Assembly (NCBI RefSeq): GCF_035594765.1
Contig: NC_085842.1
Location: 243,671,747 to 243,735,746, forward strand
Direction: 5' to 3'
DNA length: 64,000 bases
Source of the DNA: Anolis carolinensis
Taxonomy: Eukaryota
Part shown: positions 1,607 through 52,560 of the stretch, piece by piece
How the letters are laid out: each line of letters starts with the position of its first letter
How positions within the stretch are numbered: the first letter of the stretch is position 1
Position numbers and translations under genes: made by a program
The notes under the pieces: model-generated
Told to the model about the DNA's origin: nothing
Database searches by the model: none
What the model saw: only the letters and a program-made list of their open reading frames with translations

Positions 1607-2144
1607 TATACCAAGGTGAACTAGAGGTAAAGTCAATTTTGCTTTCATCTCCATTTTGATCTTTTTAAATGTAAAAATAGATCCATTCTGCTCTTTACAT
1701 GTGAACATATCTGGAACATTAAGTTGTGGTTTGATTGAGCCCTTTGCAGCAGGACTGTGCCTTAAAATCAAGCAGCGGCTTACGATTTGCTTTGAAGGGC
1801 TCATTAAACCATAAGTTGCCAATTTGGGCCGAACAGCAAATTTTAATTTTATTGTACCAGCAAAAATATTAAAGACGCTTGTGTGTAAAGAGGAACGACA
1901 TAAGCATAGTGTATATGCATGTCTCTCTAAATTCAACCAGTGTCAAAGTATTCTGTTTATCCAGGGAAATGTAGTGAATCTTTTCAGTTTCCAAGTCTTC
2001 CCTTCCTGCTATCACTGTCAGATCTTCTTAGATTTTAGCCAGGATTGCTCTACACTTTTGTATAATTCAGGTCTTTGATATAAATACCCTTCTGTCACAT
2101 TTTGCAGAAGTTTCCATTCTTACTCTGCTCTTATTCTTTCACAG

Positions 2145-2298
2145 TGGCCCAAAGCGTTACGACTGGACTGGGAAAAAATGGGTGTATTCTCACGATGGCA
2201 TGTCACTTCATGAACTACTGGCAAAGGAACTTTCATTTGCATTCAAAACCAAATTGGACTTATCAACTTTAGCATGTGCTGGACAAGAACATACTTGA
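2145..2298 (+). CDS. FXN: Frataxin, last coding exon (phase-2 start)
   Basis: Polypyrimidine acceptor ...ttattctttcacag|t, then [50 protein letters not shown] (TGA 2296-2298, followed by TAA). Matches the vertebrate frataxin C-terminus (human [30 protein letters not shown]...). Synteny with downstream TJP2. Confidence 0.97.
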
Positions 2299-27448: not shown

Positions 27449-27696
27449 TGTTGTCGAAGGCTTTCATGGCCAGAATCACAGGGTGGTTGTGTGTTTTCGG
27501 GCTGTATGGCCATGTTCCAGAAGCATTCTCTCCTGACATTTCACCCATATCTATGACAGGCATCCTCAGAGGTTGTGAGATACTGTATATATACCTCACA
27601 ACCTCTGAGGATGCCTGCTATAGATGTGGGTAAAACATCAGGAGAGAATGCTTCTGGAACATGGCCATACAGCCCAAAAACACACACAACAAGCCC
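27449..27696. mobile_element. Penelope-like termini forming a short hairpin insertion
   Basis: Two inverted terminal arms around an ~14-nt AT spacer; TSD gattgttgc(t/a)ttg at 27436 and 27697. Confidence 0.9.
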
Positions 27697-32439: not shown

Positions 32440-32950
32440 TTTACGATATGGTCAATGCAGCTCCCAATAAAATGGAGAAGATCATATGTTTTGTATTCTG
32501 CAGGATTTAATGCAGTATATAAAGTTTAGCGAACAAATCTTTAGCAGCCCATGACTTGATTTGAGAGACGAGTCACCTGCTACTCCATTAGTACTTGGAA
32601 GATTATAAGCCTTGGAGATTTAGCGAAGGATTAGTAAATTGGAGAGTGTACATTATCAGGCAGGCTTAGACCTTGATTGTCTCTTGACTCATTTTCATTA
32701 GTGCTTTATTCAAAGATCGCTGGAATTATGTAACCGTGACGTTTCAGAGGAATCTGTCAGGAATCTGTTTGGTTTTTTTAAAAAACGCCTTTTCCAAAAG
32801 TTATTTTTATAACCCCCCAGCTTGCAATGTGGGTTACACATTTTGAAAAACAGCACTGTAGTTCAGTCAGGTTGCCGGGGCCAGATGCTTTCCAATGCTG
32901 CATCCAGAAGCAGGTGGTAGCTTTTTTCAGCGGTGCATTGAAAGAGGCAG
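32440..32950 (+). promoter_or_regulatory. Candidate promoter/enhancer of the TJP2 long isoform
   Basis: TE-free stretch with several retained CpGs, AP-1 TGACTCA ~32685, GAGTCACCTG ~32570 and CRE-like TGACGT ~32737, directly before the MKYKKY exon. Confidence 0.45.
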
Positions 32951-32951
32951 G

Positions 32952-33064
32952 ATGAAGTACAAGAAGTACATCACCATTCTTGAAGCTGCAATTGGGATCA
33001 CCCCCCTCAATAAGAGGGAATTGTTACCTGTGGTTCGACATGCAAACCTTTGGCAGCATCCAGG
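32952..33064 (+). CDS. TJP2: TJP2 long-isoform first coding exon
   Basis: ATG 32952: MKYKKYITILEAAIGITPLNKRELLPVVRHANLWQHP(G), perfect donor GG|gtaagt (phase 2), possible acceptor cttttttcag at 32921-32930. Resembles the recalled long alternative N-terminus of paralog TJP1 (MKYQKYLTVLQMAIGVTPSNRGSLLP). Confidence 0.85.
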
Positions 33065-36000
33065 GTAAGTTACACATTTGGTAAATGAATAATTGCAAAG
33101 GCAAATATTGACTCTGCGAAACCGTGTTCAAGGGAGCTGTGGGCATTGCCTGTAAATGGGAGAAACGTTTAATTGGGAAGCTGCAGGAACTGCACGTAGT
33201 TTTCTTGGTGGTGTGTATTTGTGGTGTTCTTGGCTGGCATATGGGTGGCTGGGATAAATAGGAGGAATTGTCAGTAATAGCTTTTAAGCCTCTGTGTAAA
33301 CTTTTTAAAAACAAGGAACTTAGTAGATAAGCCCATGCAGACTTGAAGCAAGGGCAGATCAAGTGGGACTGTAACGGATTGCTCCTTGATTACTTTTTTC
33401 TGATGCTCACACATTTAATGATGTGGCTAGAATCTGGAAAGATGCTCACATTGCTGAACAAAGTAAATTGAATAGGCTTAGGGTCCTCCCTCCTCACAAA
33501 AAGCCTATTTTTTATTTCTGTGTTTGTGTTACACAGATATACAGCAAAAATGCTTCAATGTACCATTCATGTCTTTACAACCAGAGTCTCCTTCCCTTCC
33601 AGTTTCAGTGGTGGAGATGGGAATACAATGCACGTTTGTTATACACTGGCAATCTAGAATCATGTTATAAGGAATGAATGGGAAGTCTGCCTGCCATTGA
33701 AAAATATTTATGGTCACTGTGAAGATGCTGAATAATGTCTTTGACCAAATTGTTTAGATCCAACCCAGCAATAGCTGCTGTGGCCCGAGAGCCAGTGTGA
33801 CCAAAAAGCTTACTTTCTTCATTACATGTTTTCCAAGAAATGCTGTATTTCTGTGTGCTTCAGAATGACAAGCCACTGTAGCATAAATTAAACTATAAAG
33901 ATATACATGTACTCATTAAAGCAAAATCTTCATGACCTAGATGATTCAAGGCGTGGATTTTTAAAAAGTGATTTGCTGCAGAACAAGGTTATATGGAAAA
34001 CTGAAGCAAGGTGTTGTTTCTCTTCTGCGATGCTCAGTTACAGTGAAGCCATGTTGTCTGAGTGTGATTGCGAGCTTTTTATACATTTGAATTCCTATAA
34101 TTCATCTTGCTTATTGAGGCTGGGGCAAAGTGGGATATAAATAATGATAAATAATAATTTTCAGTGCTTATATTGCTTGTGTGTACATATAGCATATGTT
34201 TGTGTTCCTGTTCCTTTAGGTCTCATGTCTCCGGAGCCACAAATGTAACAGAGCTTTAGGGGTAATAAACTATCTGCAGAATTATGAGCTGGAAAGCCTA
34301 TCTCTAAGCATGGATATATAGTGCTTTGTATCATAGCCCATTATATTAAGTGCCTAAAGTGCTAGGCACTGTACAAATAAAACACATTGAAGGTGGGGAT
34401 GGACTGCAAGTGTTCCTTCTCCAATTTGGGATCCCCAAATCACAATCTGCTCCCCTTTTCTGACTTAGTTGTTAGCTGCAGCTTCACCATAGTCACCCAT
34501 GCCGTGGAAGTGTATAATTGGAAAACCTTATCTTTTTTAGTTGCAATTCAAAGCAGTGTGGATTAAGCTCTGGAATAGCTTTTGCTGCAGCAATAGCATA
34601 TACCAGCAGATTGTGGAAAACAAATCTGAAGTGGTCCATATGGCTCACACTCACAGCAGTTGCACTGCAGATACTACGGTACATTAATCTGTGTTTGATT
34701 TCTCCGCCAATGGATAAAGTTTTATTCCTTTGGTATTTTCCCAAGAGTTTTAAGCTCTTAACTTTTTCCCAATGCAGTGTTAATTTGTCAACTTAAGAAA
34801 TATCCAAATATAACTGGTCCCACGCTAATGGTCCCACGCTGAAACCATTTTGTAGAATATTAGGGAATATTGATGCAGAGGTTTCAGTATTTTTGTTGTA
34901 AATGTCAAGCAAACTGAAACTATGCTTCATTCACTGTTAGGGAAGGGCAAAGTAAAGTTAATGGAAATAATTTATTGTGTTATCAGACTCAACTAAAAAA
35001 GTGTGATACAAGTTCTTGAGCAACAATTATAATGGTTTAGATGTAAAAAAAATCTGGCTTTATATGGATTTTTGTCTATCCATAGGATGGTAGTAATGTT
35101 AGAATTAGACAGGATTTTTGGGAGCATTTTGCAGCTCAATCTTGGTTTATGTAACTTACATGGTAGGGAATCCAGTGGGTGACTTGCTCTCCTTCAGTTA
35201 TTGTCTCCAGATTTGGGGAATGAAATTCTTTTGACAAGAATGATGAAATTTGTGATATTCTTATCTGACAACTTTCTGATTTCCAGTCTCTTATGATTTC
35301 AACATGACTTCTCCCTGATTTGTTTCTCTCTCATGCTTTACTGAATACCCTTCGCAGCATTGAATTTATTCTATTGCACCAATACTGACTTGTCCATGTT
35401 TGTCTGTGCATCTTTTTTGCCCCATTCATCATTAAAAACAACACAAACAGCTTCTCTATTTTAAAAAACTGTGGTACCGTCTGGAGGTTCTGCATCTTCA
35501 TAGTATGTCAAGATTTTAATATTTCTGCTTAATTTTAAGAAGAAAGAATCATATGATGTTAAAGATGTTAATCATGTGCAGAGAGTCCTTCTGTTATGCC
35601 AGCAGTTGCAATGTTTAGCTAGCTACAGAGAGATACAGGAAACAGTTCTTGAATACTCGCTCACATTTTCTGTCACTCCTGTTTGTTTCTGCTCTTAATT
35701 TTTTTTTTTGCAATATTTACAGAAAACTAATTTTCCTTTTTACTGCCTATCAACCTGCTGTCACTTGGTATCTCCTGGGCCTTCCTGCTTAGCCCACTTG
35801 GGAGGACAGTGATTTGTCACATTTCCATCACTGGACTCAAGAGGAGATTGAAATCCACTGCTGGACTCCACACCAAGCCTGGAGGCTTGACAATCATAAT
35901 TAAATTCCCAGTTGCACCATTGCAAACCAGGAGTGAGGAATGTGTGGCCCTCTCTTGTTGTTCAAACGTCACAACTCCCATCAGCCCTCTTGAGTATACT

Positions 36001-37790
36001 CAAGGGAGAGGCATGATGAAAATTACATTGCAATAGCTAATGGAATATGCATTCTCCATTAGTCAGTTTGATGTAATAGTTTGAACATTGGACTCCAGAG
36101 ACCAGGGTTCAAATCCCAACTCAACCATAGAAACTTACTGAATGGCCTTGGGAAAGTTACACTTTCTCAGCCTCAGGGGAAGGCAGGGGCAAAACCCCTC
36201 TTATCAAAATTCTGCAAAGAAAATAGGGTTGCCTTAGGATCACCATGTCCAAAATGACTTGAAAGGGCACAATAACATTGCATTCCCCATTTCTTCTGTA
36301 ATGTATGGATCAGCTAAATGTTGCCTCACTGTAAAGTACAGGCATTGCCAAAGACCAGGAATGTTTTAGCTACACACCCAGGATTTAAACATCCTATGAG
36401 AAGTGTCCCTAGAAGAGTGGCTACCTTTAATTAATGGTAATGGAAACTCTTCCATTTTCTTTTGGGAGAAAGAAGCAATAATGAATGTGTCCGTGAAACT
36501 CTTTGTTGCACATAGATTTGATTTTTTTCCCTTGTGGTACGACTTCGTATACAAGGATCACAGCAGTAATCTTATTTAGCTCAGAACAGCCCTGAAACAA
36601 CACACAGAGTAGAATGGCTGGGGATTTGAATCATCCCTCACAGATAAACCTGATATTCAACATGCTGCTCCACACTTGCCATTGTAAGAATAAAGTAAGG
36701 TGTGTGTGCTTCATGCTACAAGAATATTAAAATTATATATTCAGAGAACTTAAATTTTTAAAAATAGATCCTGCGTCCTGTCTAAATTTCTCCCAATTTG
36801 AATAAATGTTTCATATCTTATTTTGCAGAGTGCTGTATTTTTTGATACAGTTTTGAAAGGCACAAATTATTCCCAATTCCTAAGACCAGAAGTCAGAACA
36901 GGTAACTTATGCACATATGACTTCAAGTTGTCTTTTCAGTCTCCATTAACTTCATCTACAAAGAATACTCAAGAGACAATTTGCAATTGCCTCCCTTGAA
37001 AATTCAGCTTAGAGCACCTGGTGTTCTCATACCCAGTTACCAGCTAGGCCTCACCCTAATTACTTTCCAAGAACAGAAAGGATCCCGTGCCTTCAGTGTG
37101 TTGAGCTTCCAAAGAATAGATTATGTATCTCTAAAAATATACATTTTTATCAAATTTGTGTCCTACGTCTTCTGCAAATGACTCAAGGAAGGATGAATTA
37201 TTGTCACCACTAGCACTTTATCTTCACCATAACCTCATGCAGTCAGAGACTGAGAGATGGTAACTTGCCTGGGTTACCCACTCAGCCATGAAATCCCCAC
37301 TTTCATGGCTGAGTGGGAAATGATGTCACACACATATTAACAGTCACTCTAGATTGATTGTCTTCTCTGTTTTTGCCCTGGTAGCATTTGCTACACATGA
37401 CCAATGCAACCCATAGCTTATTCACTGAGAAATACATTCCACCAGGATGGGCCATTTCTTTATATGCCTCATGCAGCATATGGTTGGATGGGAATTGTAC
37501 ACAAGTGCTGGAGGACAATTGTATGTACTACCTAGTCAATTTTGTAGGCCACTCTGAGTCCCTTCGGGTGAGAAGGGCAGGATATAAATGTTGGGAATAA
37601 ATAAATAAATAAGTTGAACCTCCTAAATTGGCTCAATGCTGTCTTGGGTTCTTGAAGATGTTACCCTGCTGTCAGTGTTAAAATAAGATTTAATCACTAG
37701 CCAATCTATTTGATTTTTAAACATTGAATGGAAGTAGGGAGGATTTTGTTCTTAGGAAGCAAAATGGCTTAGGCCAGCCATTATCTTAAT

Positions 37791-38017
37791 TGTGTCAGAA
37801 GTGAATTGAGAACATACTGCAAGTCGTTTCTGGGGTGAGAGAATCAGCTGTCTACAAAGACCAAAGTTGCCCAGGAGACGCCCCGATGTGTTACCATCCT
37901 GCTGAGAGGCTTCACTCATGACCCCGCATGGGAAGCTAATGGGAGTTCACTCTGTCTAGCAGATTTGAACCGCCAACCTACAGGTCAGCAGTTCAGCCAG
38001 CACAAGGGTTTAACCCA
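37791..38017 (-). mobile_element. AnolisSINE2-type SINE
   Basis: Same family core, head clipped by a MITE fragment. Confidence 0.83.
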
Positions 38018-38900
38018 GGCATAGGCAAACTTCAGCTCTTCGGGTATTTTGGATTTCAACTCCCACAATTCGAATTGCCAATAAACGTAACAGCCAATAA
38101 AAGTTAACCCTGATGCAATCCCTGGTAAGAGGCACATGTCACCTTAAAAATATGATGTAAACTTTTTTAGCAGATTTTGGGAAGACATGAAGAAAAAGAG
38201 GCACACTATGGATGTTTTCTGAGTTTTACAACCTCAAACACCTATTTCTTTTATTTTTATCCGTAAATAATGGCTTTTAAATGGCATCCCTTTGGGGTGC
38301 TTCTATAAATTATAGCCTACATATTATAAATAGCTGCTGATGACAAAAATAAAATGTAATAAACTATAGCCTATAATAAAGGTTGAGGTGTTTTGGGTGT
38401 GAATCTGTCTCCTGCCAATCTTTTCTTAACCGAATTGTCTGCTCAGAATTAAATCCCATTATAACGCTACGGAGTGTTACTCTCGGGTAAGCAGGTCCAG
38501 ATTTGTAGCCTAGCATTCCTGCTGGCTTCCTGTGACTTGAAAGATGGTACATCCACCTTGTAGCTCTGGAATGTACGCTTACAGAGCGGTACCACTTTAT
38601 AAGTAGTAAAAAATAGGAAGCTGTGGTATACGCTGATTAAAACTACCCTTCCTTGAAATGGAATGTTTTTACTTTGGGAGAGGCAACAGGATGGAAGAAA
38701 ACAAACCACTAAGAAATGTTTGTATCCTGACTCTGTTGAAATCTTTCTTTCCTACTGAAGACAAAACAAGGGTGAACATCTCTGTTTTCTGCAATGTACA
38801 ATCTAGTACTCAGTCTAATTCATGGTGTACATTTCTGGCCTTATGTAAAAAAATATTTTATCAACAGGCTGTTTTGAAAAATATACTTATAGTGGTTATA

Positions 38901-39196
38901 GGTAGGTAAAGGTTTTCCCCTGATATTAAGCCTAGTTGTGCCTGTCTCTGTGGGTTGGTGCTCATCTCCATTTCTAAGCCAAAGAGCCAGCATTGTCCGT
39001 GGACACCTCCAAAGTCATGTAGCCAGCATGACTGCATGGAGCAACATTACCTTCTAACCGGAGTGGTACCTATTGATCTACTCACACTTGCATGTTTTCA
39101 AACTGCTAGGTTGGCAGAAGCTGGGGCTGACTGCAGGAGCTCACCCCACTCTCCAGATTCGAACTGCCAACATTTTGATCAGCAAGTTCAGTAGCT
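38901..39196 (-). mobile_element. Sauria SINE
   Basis: ggtaaaggttttcccctga...gtacctattgatctactcac core. Confidence 0.9.
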
Positions 39197-39646
39197 ATGT
39201 GCTGTGTACAGATTACTTCAAGTTCTAGTGCAAGCAAAACTTCTAGTCTAAGCCTGCCTGTTTAACAATTATCTTGCAGTGATATTCCACTTCTGTCCCC
39301 TTTTTGGTCATCTTTCCTGACCCTTTAAGCAGCTGCATGACATATTACTGAAGCAAAATAAGAAACTTAACAGGGGTAGCTTCCCCCATAGAGACCATGA
39401 GTGAAAGGAAAAGCCCTCTGTATCCATGGCTCCTGTATCCACAAATGCCCCTTAAATAAAAAAAATAATGACCTTGCCATTTTATTTAAGGGACATCATT
39501 TTGTTACACCTTTGTTTATGCTGAGACATGAGCACCCAAAGATTTTGGTCTTCACTGAGGGCCCTGGAACCAAAACATTGTGGTAACAAGGACCCGCTGT
39601 AACCAATCAATTTTTACCTGACTTGTTATAGTCCCTCTATCAATGG

Positions 39647-39802
39647 AGAATCATAGAATCATAGAATAGTAGAGTTGGAAGAGACCTCATGGGCCATCTA
39701 GTCCAACCCCCTGCTAAGAAGCAGGAAATCGCATTCAAAGCACCCCCGACAGATGGCCATCCAGCCTCTGCTTAAAAGCTTCCAAAGAAGGAGCCTCCAC
39801 CA
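39647..39802 (-). mobile_element. CR1 3' fragment
   Basis: (atagaatc)n tail; near-identical to 50770-50918. Confidence 0.9.
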
Positions 39803-40416
39803 GAAAAGCTTTGTGGTCCCAGCTTATGCAATCCTCTTTACCCATGTTCATTTTCTGCCATAACATAATTTCTTAGCACAATATCTGAATTTCAGAACAA
39901 AATATGTAAACAAAATAAGCATTGAATGTACTTGTACTACACTAGTTGATTTTCAAGAGATAGTGCTGAGCATTGAATTACCAATCTGGAGACCAGGGTT
40001 TGAATCCCTGCTCAGACATGAAATCCACTGGATGGACTTGGGCAAGTCACATTCTCTCAGCCTCAGAAAAAGGAAAACCTCTTCTGAACTAATCATGCCA
40101 AGAAAACCTTGTGATCAAGATGTCACAGGTCCGAAATGTATTGAAGATGAACAAGAACAGCATTGGTTTTCCTAATATAAAGAATGATAGTTTCTTTGGC
40201 ACAGTGTACTTGGTGTGGCCCATGAATGCACATAGTGAGTCATTTCCTTTGTAAGTTTGCTCAAGAGTAATGAAGAATTAATTCCGAGAAAGCAAACCAA
40301 TCAGTGAAGAGATTAAAGATAACATTAAAGCATACTTCTTGCAATTATTATTCTTTCCCATGTCTACCTGTAAAAAAAGGTAGAATTGCTCAATGATGCA
40401 GAAATAGTTGTTCCTT

Positions 40417-40511
40417 CATAGAATCATAGAATAATAGAGTTGGAAGAGACCTCTTGGGCCATCCAGTCCAACCCGCTGCCAAGAAGCAGGAAATCGTATT
40501 CAAAGCACCCC
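40417..40511 (-). mobile_element. CR1 3' fragment
   Basis: tcatagaatcataga...gttggaagagacctc. Confidence 0.88.
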
Positions 40512-41530
40512 TACTTCCTTCCTTTTGTGCCACAGAGCTAAAGGTTCTTGCAGTTTTGTTCAAGGTGTGGCCAGGAAAGCATCAATGTTCCTCCAGCCGG
40601 TCTTTCACCTCTCCTGCTGTGACAAAGTGTACCAGGAGTCCGATTAGATTATCCTTTCAGTGGCAGTTATGTGTGATGAGTGGATGGACAGGGATTGAGG
40701 GGGAGCAAAGCTCCAGTGAGACAGATAAGCATAGCTGGCAGGCCTAGAATTAATTAAGAGCTGGAATTAAATGACATATGTCCCAGGGGGAAGTACCTGT
40801 TAGGCTTGGGAACAGAACAGACTAGGTGGCTAAGGAGAGTTGGTTAGTAGGTTTGGAGTTGTCTGTGAAGTGAATACACCCGACCTCCTTATGACCCTAC
40901 TTGTATTAAGATGATAGGATTAAACATCTCTGAAGAGTGCTGGAGAAGCACAACAGGGTGGCAAAATTGGTTTGAGACAAAGCCTGTGTCCACAACCTAT
41001 TTTCTAAGCTAGAACCCACAAGCAAGGTTTTTTTCCCTCATCAGCAATCATGTTTGTCAAGAGTGGCACTTGTTCCTCTTCTCCATCTTCCAAAATCCCA
41101 TGACCATGTGACAGACCTCGCCGAGGATGGTGTGAATGTGACCTGTTTGGAGGACAGTCCAGATCAAGTATGGGAGAGTAGCAAAGGGGATGAGAAGGAA
41201 AGTAGAGTGAAGTTTCCTATCAGCAGTAGACATCTGGACAGTACGCTTAGCGCAGAGCCAGCCCTGCCATTAGACAGAGTAAGGCATCTGTCTTATGTAT
41301 CAGTTGAAAAGACAGCAAATTGTTAGCTATTTGATGTGCGATTGGTATGTTTCTATCGAGAGGGATTTACAGAGAGCGTTTTGATTGGCTTTGAATACTA
41401 TACATCTTGAAATGTGGGGTGGAGAGAGATGCCATTTGCTGATCACCTTCAGACAGGAAAATATTTTGAGCTTTCCCTTGTGGTGAGATGTATATTGTTT
41501 CATAGTCATAATTTATACATTTGTATCTAG

Positions 41531-41742
41531 TGCAGCAGGTTAAACCGCTGAGCTGAACTTGCTGACCAAAAGGTTGGCGGTTCAAATCCTGGGAGCAGGG
41601 TGAGCTCCCTCTGTTAGCACCATCTTCTGCCAACCTAGCAGTTTGAAAACCTACAAATGTGAGTAGATCAATGGGTAACACTCCGGTGAGAAGGTAACGG
41701 TGCTTCATGCAATCATGCCGGCCGCATGACCTTGGAGGTGTC
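41531..41742 (+). mobile_element. Sauria SINE (3' truncated)
   Basis: ggttaaaccgctgagctg...gtgagtagatcaat...gaccttggaggtgtc. Confidence 0.88.
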
Positions 41743-42405
41743 CTTTTTGTTAATCCATCCCTTTTTATCCTTTTCGCAATGTAGAAGTAGCCACTGTATT
41801 CCAAATATAGTGGGTTTTGTTGGCTTCTAAGGCAGATGCACATAAAATTTATTTTAAGACTTCTTTTCTTGGTAACCAATGCAGGTGGTAGCGGTTATAA
41901 AATGTTTTTAACTTTAATTGCTTCTTTCTCATGCCCTGTGCATAAGACTAGAGCAGTTTTGTTGTTGCTACTGATAGCCAGAAAGTTTCTTTTTAAAAAG
42001 GAGCAACTTTCCCCATGAAAGTTGATTATGATGATGGCGCTGTATTGACACATCGAGCAATGCCATTCTAAAGATCTGCATTACTGTTTTGTTATACAGC
42101 AGGCCTTCCACTTTTGGATCCCATAAAATGTACAAAAGTTAAACCTGCAAATGTGGAGGTTTGTGGCTGACTGTATCTAAATAATATCAAAAACAATTTT
42201 AATGGGAATGAACACTGATAAGCACAATGAAAAATACTGTTAGGAATCTGTCCAAATAGTAATGATTTCAATATTCTTTTCTGGAATTGAACTGTTTGTT
42301 AACATACTTGTGACAGTTACATTTCAAAGTGTTTAGTGTTTCTTGCTTAACCTGAAGTAATTTATTTTAACATCTAACTATTACTTTTTATAATTATTAA
42401 TTTAG

Positions 42406-42526
42406 GGAACCACCAACAATACCACCATCTCCTTGCGAGTGGGACTGGGAACACAGCTATAGATCAAGCCCAAGACGCATCACCGGAAATAGACTGAGAA
42501 TACTGAAACGGGTCCGTTCTCACCAG
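42406..42526 (+). CDS. TJP2: TJP2 long-isoform second exon (121 nt, phase 2 to phase 0)
   Basis: Acceptor ...aattattaatttag|g, open frame (G)EPPTIPPSPCEWDWEHSYRSSPRRITGNRLRILKRVRSHQ, donor CAG|gtactt. Phase fits the 33064 donor upstream and the phase-0 entry of common exon 2. Confidence 0.8.
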
Positions 42527-43235
42527 GTACTTGTTAAGATTAGTTTCAGTCAGTGTTCACCTTCTACAGTTATTATACCATGTTTAAGCCTATCTAAAAT
42601 CCTGTCTAGATGTGAAACTTTGTTTTCAAAACACATGGTACCATACACTGCAATCCTCAAAAAATTCTAGATATTGTAGCATTGTAATGAAGTGCAGAAA
42701 CCATTCTATTGATATATTACCGCATTAAAGGGAAGCCTTCAAAGAATGAATGAAGCACAATGGTCTTACTCTGTTGGATGTTCCATCTTGGTAGAGTTAC
42801 TGGATCTCTGCTCCAATTCCCCAGGTTTCACAGATAATTTCTGGGAAACAAACAGAGTTTCAAATTCTAGTTTTCATCAGGTGGGCCATAGACAAGAAAC
42901 ATGATGGTATTAAAACCTTTTGTCAGGCTGGCAACAGTCTGCCTGTGTAGATTGCTGCACTTCACAAAATTTAATCAATGCAATTCAAGTTTTACTATGT
43001 ACGAAATCAGTTAAATTTGAGCAAGAAAAAAAACCTGTTCATTTGCATGTCCATTTGTTTACAAGCCATGAGCAAATGGTTGCTACTTGGTGTATAACGC
43101 TTAATGATATCACCATTCCCTGTCTCAATGACATACTAAAGCCATCCCTAAGTGTCAGGTTTTGACCTGGCAGTCTCAGGGCCTTGGATGATCCATACCT
43201 AGCAAACCTCCATGTTGAGCAAAACGATCCAAACT

Positions 43236-51000: not shown

Positions 51001-51601
51001 CGAAGGAGGAGTTGTTTAAAGCTCCGGCAGGGCCGGCCCCACTATGGAGGCCACGTGAGGCCGCCGCCTCGGGCGCAGGTCTGGGGGGGCGCCGTCAGGC
51101 TGGGCGGGAGGCGGGGCACCGCCCTGACGGTGCCCCGCCTCCCGCCCAGTTCGCCCTCGCCCGTCTGGCCTTTTCTAGCTGGCCAGACTGCAGCGGAGGT
51201 CCCTCCAGGCTGCGATTGCGGCCTGGAGGGACCCCCGCTGCAGTCTGGCCAGCTAGAAAAGGCCAGACGGGCGAGCGGGAGTAGCGCGGGAGGCGGGGCC
51301 AACTCTGGCCCCGCCCCCCCACCCAGCGTGCCCTGGCCCCGCCTCTCATGCAGCGTGGGAGGAGGGGCCAGGGCACGCTGGGCAGGTGGCGGGGCCAGGG
51401 CGCGGGAGGCAGGGCCGGAGGCGGGGGCGCTTTTCAGCACCCCCGCTTAACATCAAAAATTATCTCCGGCCGGCCCTGAGCTCCGGACAATGCGGTTGCT
51501 GTTGCCCGTTTTTGGTCTAAAACTATTTAGTTGCTTGTGATTTCCTTTTTTCATCATTTTAAAATGTATTTGTTATGCAGTGCTTTTGACACGAAATAAA
51601 A
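51001..51601 (+). mobile_element. Vingi/Ingi-like LINE 3' end (split by the hAT)
   Basis: Removing the hAT gives KEELFKAPDNAVAVARFWSKTI* plus a 3'UTR ending tgacacgaaataaaa; 12-bp TSD atggcagttaaa at 50989/51602. Confidence 0.72.
51028..51478. mobile_element. GC-rich non-autonomous hAT element
   Basis: TIR cagggccggcc/ggccggccctg; perfect 8-bp TSD agctccgg at 51020/51479. Confidence 0.92.
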
Positions 51602-51639
51602 ATGGCAGTTAAAGTGATGTCAAACTGCGTTAATTCAAC

Positions 51640-52560
51640 AGCGTGCATATACCCCGCCTTTATACTTTGGTGGCCAGTCTCTGCGTTCCCACTCCTTTGC
51701 AAAACTTCTTCCCATCCTCATCTTCTCTTTCCTTCTCTCCTCCTCCTCCTCTTCGCACACCCCCTCCTTAATTCCCCCGGGGTCTCCCTGGAGTGGTGCC
51801 CGAAGGCCGAGGCCCTGAGTGGCTGGTGCCCCTGCCTCCCTCGCATCATGTGAGGCGCCTGCAACTAGCCCACCCTCGCCTGCCTGGCCCACTCCGCGTC
51901 CCAGAGGGAAAGGCAGGCGCGCGCGCGATGTTGCAATGGGAGCAGCCCAGGGTTCCGCCGGGAGCGAACCAATCGCGCCCAAAGGGGGGAGGGAACAGGT
52001 CGGTACCATCTCCCGCCGCCGCCGCCGCCGGCTCCCGCTTTTTCCCTACCTTCTCGCTTTCCTCCCTGCTGCGCGTTTCTCTTCCAGTTTGTCCGCAGTG
52101 CTAGAGACATGCGTAGGCGCGAACGGCATGGGGTAACTCTCATAAACTCCCCCCTTTTTTCCCCCCGGAATGGTAGCGCCGGCTGAAGAATGGCTTGGGA
52201 AGTCAGTGCTTGTGGGGCGAACCGGTTTGGGGAGGAAGGGGGAGGGATGCCGGGAACTGGCTCTGCGGGAAGTTTGGAGAGCCCGAAACAAGGAGGCGGG
52301 ACGCTTCCTGGCTTGCGGGGAGGGAAGGCGCGCCTGAGCTGCCTTTAGCCCGAAAAAGTTTGTGGAGATTGAGAGACTTTGGGCAGCCCTGCGAGATGCC
52401 GGTGCGAGGAGGCGAGCGCTCCCTGCGAGCCATGGGCTCGCCTTGGTTCGGGGTGAGTAGCCCGGGGGTTACTAATGGGTGCCTTTCCCTCCTCAAGTCC
52501 TTCTCCCTTCCCTCCTCCCTCCAGCAGACCACAGAGCGGAGGTGTCACGCTGCCTCTACA
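51640..52560 (+). promoter_or_regulatory. TJP2: CpG-island promoter/5' leader of TJP2 exon A
   Basis: High GC and CpG against an AT-rich background; GC box ~51651, GC dinucleotide run 51917-51927, TTGCAAT 51931, CCAAT 51969-51973, (CCG)6 52013-52030. Confidence 0.85.
52396..52452 (+). CDS. TJP2: TJP2 (ZO-2A) canonical first coding exon
   Basis: ATG CCG GTG CGA GGA...: MPVRGGERSLRAMGSPWFG, then GGG|gtgagt donor (phase 0). Human ZO-2A starts [26 protein letters not shown]. Lies in a CpG island downstream of FXN. Confidence 0.9.

Follow-up and report, generated by a model that had tools for sequence, protein, structure and literature searches.

The TJP2 gene, which encodes the scaffold protein ZO-2, has its 5′ part in a 64,000-nucleotide stretch of Anolis carolinensis DNA (NCBI RefSeq assembly GCF_035594765.1, contig NC_085842.1, positions 243,671,747 to 243,735,746). 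This whole stretch is termed the window here, and positions are counted from its first letter. On the + strand the order is a frataxin exon, two short exons termed 1a and 1b, and exon A, and this order is that of the TJP2 locus. Exon A begins with MPVRG, the first five residues of macaque TJP2 (P0023). Exons 1a and 1b, joined in phase 2, give 234 nt, i.e. 78 codons with no stop codon, and end in phase 0. These two exons are almost certainly a genuine coding alternative start of ZO-2, and the segment they encode is termed the leader.

The two exons, their phases and the 78-codon translation are exactly those proposed in a first-pass annotation of the window, and the splice sites are canonical. 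The leader starts at an ATG at position 32952 that has an A at -3. When scored with an approximate matrix, with generic base frequencies, the donors of exons 1a and 1b are at the 99.9th and 96.9th percentile, respectively, of the 3521 GT sites in the window. The exon 1b acceptor has its AG at 42404-5 and 12 pyrimidines in 18 positions, a bar reached by 235 of 4388 AG sites in the window; it is an unremarkable acceptor, but a sound one. One of the three reading frames of exon 1b is open, and this is the joined one. A chance open frame was considered for the leader and is ruled out by the conservation described below. TJP2 exon 2 has no match within the 64-kb window, and the junction of exon 1b with exon 2 is therefore taken from the orthologues. 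The phase-0 end that exon 1b shares with exon A is seen in the sequence; the replacement of exon A on exon 2, which the first-pass annotation drew from it, rests on orthologous proteins.

Table 1. Coding exons and intron of the leader, and neighboring features, in the window
Feature	Position	Strand	Description
Exon 1a, coding part	32952..33064	+	113 nt, codons 1-37 and two bases of codon 38; phase-2 GT donor at 33065
Intron	33065..42405	+	Phase 2, GT-AG, 9341 nt; interspersed repeats abundant; branch-point-like CTAAC at 42374
Exon 1b	42406..42526	+	121 nt; tetrapod CEW core and basic, poorly conserved tail; phase-0 end, GT donor at 42527
Exon A, coding part	52396..52452	+	Usual first exon; 19 codons, MPVRG start; strong phase-0 donor at 52453; CpG island at ~51001-52500
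Frataxin, last coding exon (upstream neighbor)	~2143..2295	+	Pfam PF01491, E 5.6e-9

Searches of the window by tblastn with the owl and frog TJP2 proteins match both exons in order, which is the outcome of the BLAST comparison with vertebrate ZO isoforms proposed along with the first-pass annotation. By tblastn, exon 1a is 92% identical to owl and 84% to frog, and exon 1b 50% and 37.5%, respectively. The leader runs into the body of the protein at PDZ1 in the TJP2 models predicted for owl (XP_026721853.1), frog (KAM4808497.1), marmoset (XP_035158850.2) and macaque (XP_045229073.1), as expected of an alternative ZO-2 N-terminus. TJP2 models predicted for Cebus, Sapajus, Saimiri and mink also have the leader; just its first ~55 residues are retained in the model from mink and in two UniRef models from owl. 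Three teleost proteins have the leader joined to a PDZ1 that scores nearer to TJP2 than to TJP1 in all three, in one narrowly. Leader models are present in RefSeq, GenBank and UniRef. Thus, the leader is annotated in some vertebrates (owl, frog, primates, mink and teleosts), as had been supposed, and to call it hidden was an overstatement. Its length is 74-79 residues in 10 of 11 full leaders. Long isoforms predicted in owl, frog, macaque, marmoset and a teleost (MEQ2276565.1) have the same start, this same range of lengths and the same junction before PDZ1; they show species-level divergence only, mostly in residues 55-78. Part of PDZ2 is seemingly missing at residues ~365-410 of an owl RefSeq model (P0004), and this model is imperfect outside of the leader.

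A profile of TJP2 leaders was searched against 1.84 billion proteins and gave 33 matches. These consist of 24 fish-type exon 1a sequences, five exon 1b sequences, two TJP1-type leaders (E 2e-4 and 8e-4) and two unrelated repetitive proteins (P0054 and P0056), which were dropped. Species names were looked up for 10 of the 33, and the eight that were named are seven teleosts and one whale. No TJP3 or invertebrate leader is recognizable among the 33 matches of this profile, whose reach into mammalian TJP1 was marginal and which gave no TJP1-type leader from fish. An insensitive search found no human or ape TJP2 leader among 11 matches from 13 candidates. A human TJP2 form, UniProt A0A1B0GTW1, may carry the leader, as its length would fit one of 79 residues. 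The passages on A0A1B0GTW1 in two papers (PMC8150437 and PMC9266681) identify it as TJP2 and say no more than that. A bird-like protein (P0038) has a Pro/Ala-rich reading frame joined in frame onto exon 1b, and in some transcripts exon 1b may follow a different first exon.

The 34-residue motif encoded by exon 1a is conserved about as well as PDZ1. Between owl and frog, 32 of 35 motif positions are identical, compared with 78 of 88 in PDZ1, 16 of 43 in the linker and 61 of 125 in the U2 region. Over 26 codons, the window and the fish contig L001 differ at codon positions 1, 2 and 3 in 7, 1 and 13 cases, respectively, with 11 synonymous and 7 non-synonymous codons. The codon-position differences and the owl-frog identity of the motif point to purifying selection on the orthologous sequence, the absence of which had been named as a ground for giving up the proposal. 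Six residues (K5, A13, G15, N20, P26 and W34) are invariant in all 22 distinct motifs, which come from 167 records, and 20 or 21 of the 22 have M1, P18, K21, R29 and L33. The motif has a predicted helix at residues 2-13, followed by G15, P18, N20, K21, P26, R29, L33 and W34. Exon 1b is homologous among tetrapods, as 0 of 5000 shuffles attain its score against owl, frog or macaque; against fish it shows no detectable homology. Residues 55-78 share eight of 24 positions with owl and eight of 24 with frog. The charge of the basic tail is retained in tetrapod TJP2 (+6 to +8 in the last 25 residues), but not its sequence.

Several features lie in the 5′ flank of exon 1a. An upstream in-frame ATG at 32895 is in a weak context and would lengthen the leader by 19 residues. 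It was rejected as the conserved start; it has a C at -3 and most orthologues start at the Met equivalent to 32952. Within 32905-32951 an acceptor-like sequence, TTTTTTCAG, ends at 32930, 21 nt 5′ of the ATG at 32952. The frame 5′ of this ATG reads FQ..C.E and resembles YFQCTE, which precedes the Met in owl model P0002. This may reflect conservation of the 5′ flank; alternatively, exon 1a might at times be internal, preceded by an exon that is non-coding or read through from frataxin. No Rfam match for the leader region was found over positions 25000-55000. Two long inverted repeats, at 51088-51343 (126 nt, 77%, 4-nt spacer) and 27488-27686 (95 nt, 92%, 9-nt spacer), are likely remnants of hairpin transposons. 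The former sits within the CpG island 5′ of exon A.

Transcript data were drawn from contigs of four of 24 listed runs (X12, X21, X14 and X22), RNA by guess, over positions 32750-42700, and here the signal is dominated by repeats. The exon 1a bin is uncovered in all four runs, and exon 1b has low-depth unspliced contigs in three. The joint 33064>42406 is not among the 15 displayed of 23 joints; there are 458 loose ends besides. No RNA dataset is among the matches listed for 32800-42700, a long repeat-rich query that favored DNA runs. In run X14, one low-depth contig starts precisely at the exon 1b acceptor (42406) and continues unspliced into the next intron; this start may be due to chance.

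A long TJP1 leader, named in the first-pass annotation as the likeness of the ZO-2 leader, does exist. It matches 859 protein clusters; 120 of these are listed, and almost all bear the name ZO-1, including those of human and mouse. The likeness is found in exon 1a, which scores 103 against the mouse TJP1 leader (shuffles 20±4, reached by 0 of 5000) with 20 of 36 aligned residues identical (16/26 and 4/10). It does not extend to exon 1b, where the score of 21 is that of chance (shuffles 21±4, reached by 2499 of 5000). The leader of mammalian long ZO-1 is similar in length, with 76 residues from the shared Met. It differs in that the sequence of its second half is unrelated and, at 96-99% among mammals, far better conserved, and in that 112 of the 120 listed models start 26-30 residues earlier at an upstream Met.

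The exon structure was read in four fish genomic contigs, L001-L004, from a metagenome collection (four confirmed of 554 pattern matches). In the TJP2-type contig L001 a phase-2 donor lies four codons past the conserved Trp, as in the window. In the TJP1-type contigs L002, L003 and L004 the phase-2 donor lies within the Trp codon, and the donors of the two types are thus offset by 12 nt. A tree of 19 motifs and 32 columns (midpoint root; L004 omitted as a near copy of L003) splits TJP1-type from TJP2-type motifs at 99/97, with fish and tetrapods on each side. Since both types occur in fish and tetrapods and each first exon has a phase-2 donor, the simplest reading of these sequences is that the motif likely stems from one ancestral exon, here termed Beta after its zebrafish counterpart, that is older than the TJP1/TJP2 duplication. 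This agrees with the pre-duplication ZO leader suggested by the first-pass annotation. An early exon transfer would be a less simple origin.

The zebrafish counterpart is tjp1b, in which three start sites, termed Alpha, Beta and Gamma, have been described; Beta has its own start (Michel et al., 2023; PMC10703405). The TJP1-type fish exon is the ZO1b-Beta first exon. The Beta CRISPR target of that study matches L002 in 23 of 23 bases (0 of 200 shuffles), and the 3′ arm of its repair oligo in 39 of 40, by eye. L002 is unlike the zebrafish 5′ arm and thus comes from another fish. Exon 1a and L002 have 12 of 24 residues identical (E 2e-9), and on this sequence comparison there is very little doubt that exon 1a is homologous to the ZO1b-Beta first exon. 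The L002 motif (1422-1520) has one extra residue after the Met, is missing P18 and forms the longest branch of the tree. Beta-type tjp1b, the isoform with an established function, is therefore the most divergent copy of the motif.

In the passages of PMC10703405 on the isoforms, ZO1b-Beta expression covers brain, spinal cord, skin and other tissues, and the isoform localizes to electrical synapses as well as to epithelial junctions. It is required, and suffices, for the robust localization of connexin at electrical synapses, and in the Beta mutant Alpha and Gamma are upregulated without rescue. All three ZO1b isoforms co-precipitate with Cx34.1. According to the authors the Beta sequence does not predict function, and the other ZO genes are mentioned in these passages only as having several start sites too. 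With an N-terminal V5 tag on Beta, connexin staining is normal (PMC8081524), so that the first residue need be neither free nor lipidated. The supposition that there is little functional work on the leader stands for ZO-2 in the literature searched; it does not for the paralogue, as both a knockout and tagging of ZO1b-Beta have been published (PMC10703405, PMC8081524).

ZO1b-Beta and the Anolis leader have in common the homologous N-terminal motif, a first coding exon that is short and has its phase-2 donor at the conserved Trp or close to it, and a position as alternative to a short first exon (Gamma in zebrafish, exon A here). The difference is one of paralogue, TJP1 versus TJP2, with the TJP2-type donor further downstream. 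In addition, an own start, neuronal expression, localization at synapses and the connexin requirement have been shown for zebrafish tjp1b alone, whereas the ZO-2 form is known from sequence. ZO-2 is present at electrical synapses of fish (PMC11601576) and mouse (PMC13189625). Leader peptides were not found in the proximity-proteome supplements searched, whose tables are at the protein level (PMC13189625).

Exons 1a and 1b would constitute the Beta first-exon cassette of ZO-2, a paralogue of the ZO1b-Beta start. An upstream promoter would fire exon 1a, and splicing would join 1a-1b, rather than exon A, to exon 2. The helix, together with the invariant Gly, Asn, Pro and Trp, would fold upon binding a putative protein partner, and exon 1b would be a flexible basic spacer that holds the motif ~45 residues from PDZ1. 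The leader would then alter where, or with what, the scaffold assembles, and not the binding of a connexin or claudin tail by PDZ1. The ZO-2 Beta motif may well be a protein-docking site that places or clusters the isoform at certain junctions, among them probably the gap-junction plaques of neurons; confidence in this reading is about even. Docking is favored by a helical moment that does not exceed that of shuffles, by the rarity of a nuclear localization pattern, and by the fixed Gly, Asn, Pro and Trp that follow the helix. Where the identity of side chains is fixed, a shaped partner would fit better than a bilayer.

A direct association with membrane is a different possibility, in which the leader attaches to the bilayer through its first helix and net positive charge, possibly with a palmitoylated leader Cys, and raises the concentration of scaffold at the cortex. 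Residues 2-16 are indeed hydrophobic (mean 0.48-0.62 on the Fauchere-Pliska scale) and positive (+1 to +3), whole leaders have a net charge of +5 to +11 and at least one Cys in 11 of 11, the predicted helix spans residues 2-13 or 4-14, and palmitoylated alternative N-termini occur in SAP97 (PMC10703405). The amphipathic start claimed by the first-pass annotation is weak: in none of the Beta-type leaders tested is the moment above shuffles, neither that of residues 2-16 (0.20-0.43; shuffle fractions 0.09-0.50) nor that of the best 11-mer (fractions 0.14-0.59). This is unlike a third TJP2 leader, with an MKTAQ start, that occurs in owl P0005 (moment 0.53, shuffle fraction 0.002) and macaque P0021 (0.47) and has no match in the window. 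The MKTAQ leader is strongly amphipathic and basic, and is a better membrane-helix candidate than the 78-residue leader. Furthermore, the Anolis leader has no Gly2, no N-terminal Cys pair and no Cys within residues 1-38, Cys positions of TJP1 and TJP2 leaders do not align, the invariant G, N, P and W are outside the helix, and the tag on Beta is tolerated (PMC8081524). An anchor in the membrane is thus unlikely. The basic end of exon 1b was also proposed to be a nuclear localization signal. ZO-2 does shuttle to the nucleus (PMC6747478), and the tail in the window has a net charge of +8 in 25 residues and one match to K[KR]x[KR]. This monopartite pattern is found in one of 11 full leaders, that of the window itself, and the bipartite pattern in none of 11; the tail sequence is poorly conserved, and the mapped ZO-2 nuclear localization signals are in U2, common to all isoforms (passages of PMC6747478). 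Such a signal in exon 1b is most improbable.

The leader might instead act on the ZO protein itself, by folding back on PDZ1 or on PDZ3-SH3-GuK or by self-association, and so tune the open or closed state, oligomer size or condensation. ZO proteins are subject to conformational control and condensation, which speaks for such a role. The leader is directly ahead of PDZ1 in both paralogues with a similar spacer length, and SAP97-beta has an N-terminal interaction domain (PMC10703405). The co-precipitation of Cx34.1 with all three ZO1b isoforms argues that PDZ1 is not simply blocked or licensed, and the leader has no L27 or other Pfam domain; an action on ZO itself is quite unlikely. No Pfam family is found on exon 1a, exon 1b or the TJP1-type leader P0058, PDB sequences give 0 leader matches at E 10, the ESM Atlas gives none, and a fold search with the predicted model returned PDZ domains alone. 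It can also be argued that the upstream promoter, through cell type or dose, is what counts, and that the peptide is a tolerated passenger. Abundance is named by the authors of the zebrafish work as a possible cause of Beta dominance (PMC10703405), and TJP2 promoter choice varies between tissues and tumors (PMC6747478, PMC5898269). But the motif is conserved at the level of PDZ1 in two paralogues while the adjoining linker drops to ~40% identity, and orthologues have an in-frame Met a few residues past the junction, so that the leader could be dispensable for making the protein, yet is kept. A mere passenger is very unlikely. An extension of the docking reading takes the motif as a vertebrate-wide gap-junction targeting module of ZO-1 and ZO-2 that licenses connexin clustering, with ZO-2 Beta as the form at Cx36 plaques and human ZO-2C perhaps carrying the leader and being longer. 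This broader proposal is tentative and on the doubtful side.

Several points weigh against docking as the role of the motif. The orthologous leader proteins are gene-model predictions and not peptides, and the docking step draws on the conservation pattern alone, no partner having been found. The structure models are both poor overall, and the first helix alone has fair confidence, in one of them: AlphaFold2 gives the full owl ZO-2 a mean predicted local distance difference test score (pLDDT) of 38, with a helix at residues 2-13 and a pLDDT of 78 over residues 1-10; for a fish leader with partial PDZ1 the mean is 43 and a helix at residues 4-14 is at 54-59. Of the first 26 positions, 10 are not the same in the motifs of TJP1 and TJP2, and therefore their partners may have diverged. 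Abundance, rather than the peptide, is left open as the cause of Beta dominance, and exons 3 and 4, which Alpha has in common with Beta, are a further difference between Beta and Gamma (PMC10703405). With these exons shared and the first exon ending in the Trp codon, the peptide unique to Beta would be the motif. The presence of Beta at epithelial junctions implies that the motif is not neuron-only. The passages of PMC11601576 and PMC13189625 do not specify the ZO-2 isoform at electrical synapses, and connexins showed no overt defect in zebrafish ZO2/ZO3 mutants (Marsh 2017, as cited in PMC8081524).

Alternative N-termini are known in related systems. Human ZO-2A and ZO-2C depend on two promoters, and use of the upstream one changes the N-terminus (Chlenski et al., as reviewed in PMC6747478). 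ZO-2C is described as 23 residues shorter than ZO-2A, whereas the leader form described here is longer. A survey of human full-length cDNAs reports brain- and trachea-enriched TJP2 first exons, in passages that give no sequences (PMC2780955), and Tjp2 promoter choice has been described in mouse germ layers (PMC5898269). SAP97 alpha and beta offer an analogy in the manner of working only: in this MAGUK scaffold alternative first exons set the subsynaptic position (PMC10703405). The leader described here differs in being without L27 and without an N-terminal Cys pair, and no sequence similarity to SAP97 was found.

The ZO-2 leader isoform is real, is already annotated in other vertebrates and is apparently unstudied. 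A search of Creative Commons papers of PubMed Central and of bioRxiv, with subscription papers outside its scope, yielded none that describes the ZO-2 leader or its homology to Beta. The gene model itself is known, and the point of interest is the link of the ZO-2 leader to ZO1b-Beta. Work with exon A cDNAs, or with reference proteomes that have only the exon A form, would miss the leader isoform. The ZO-2 paralogue narrows the question of abundance versus peptide, posed by ZO1b-Beta, to 34 residues, six of which are invariant.

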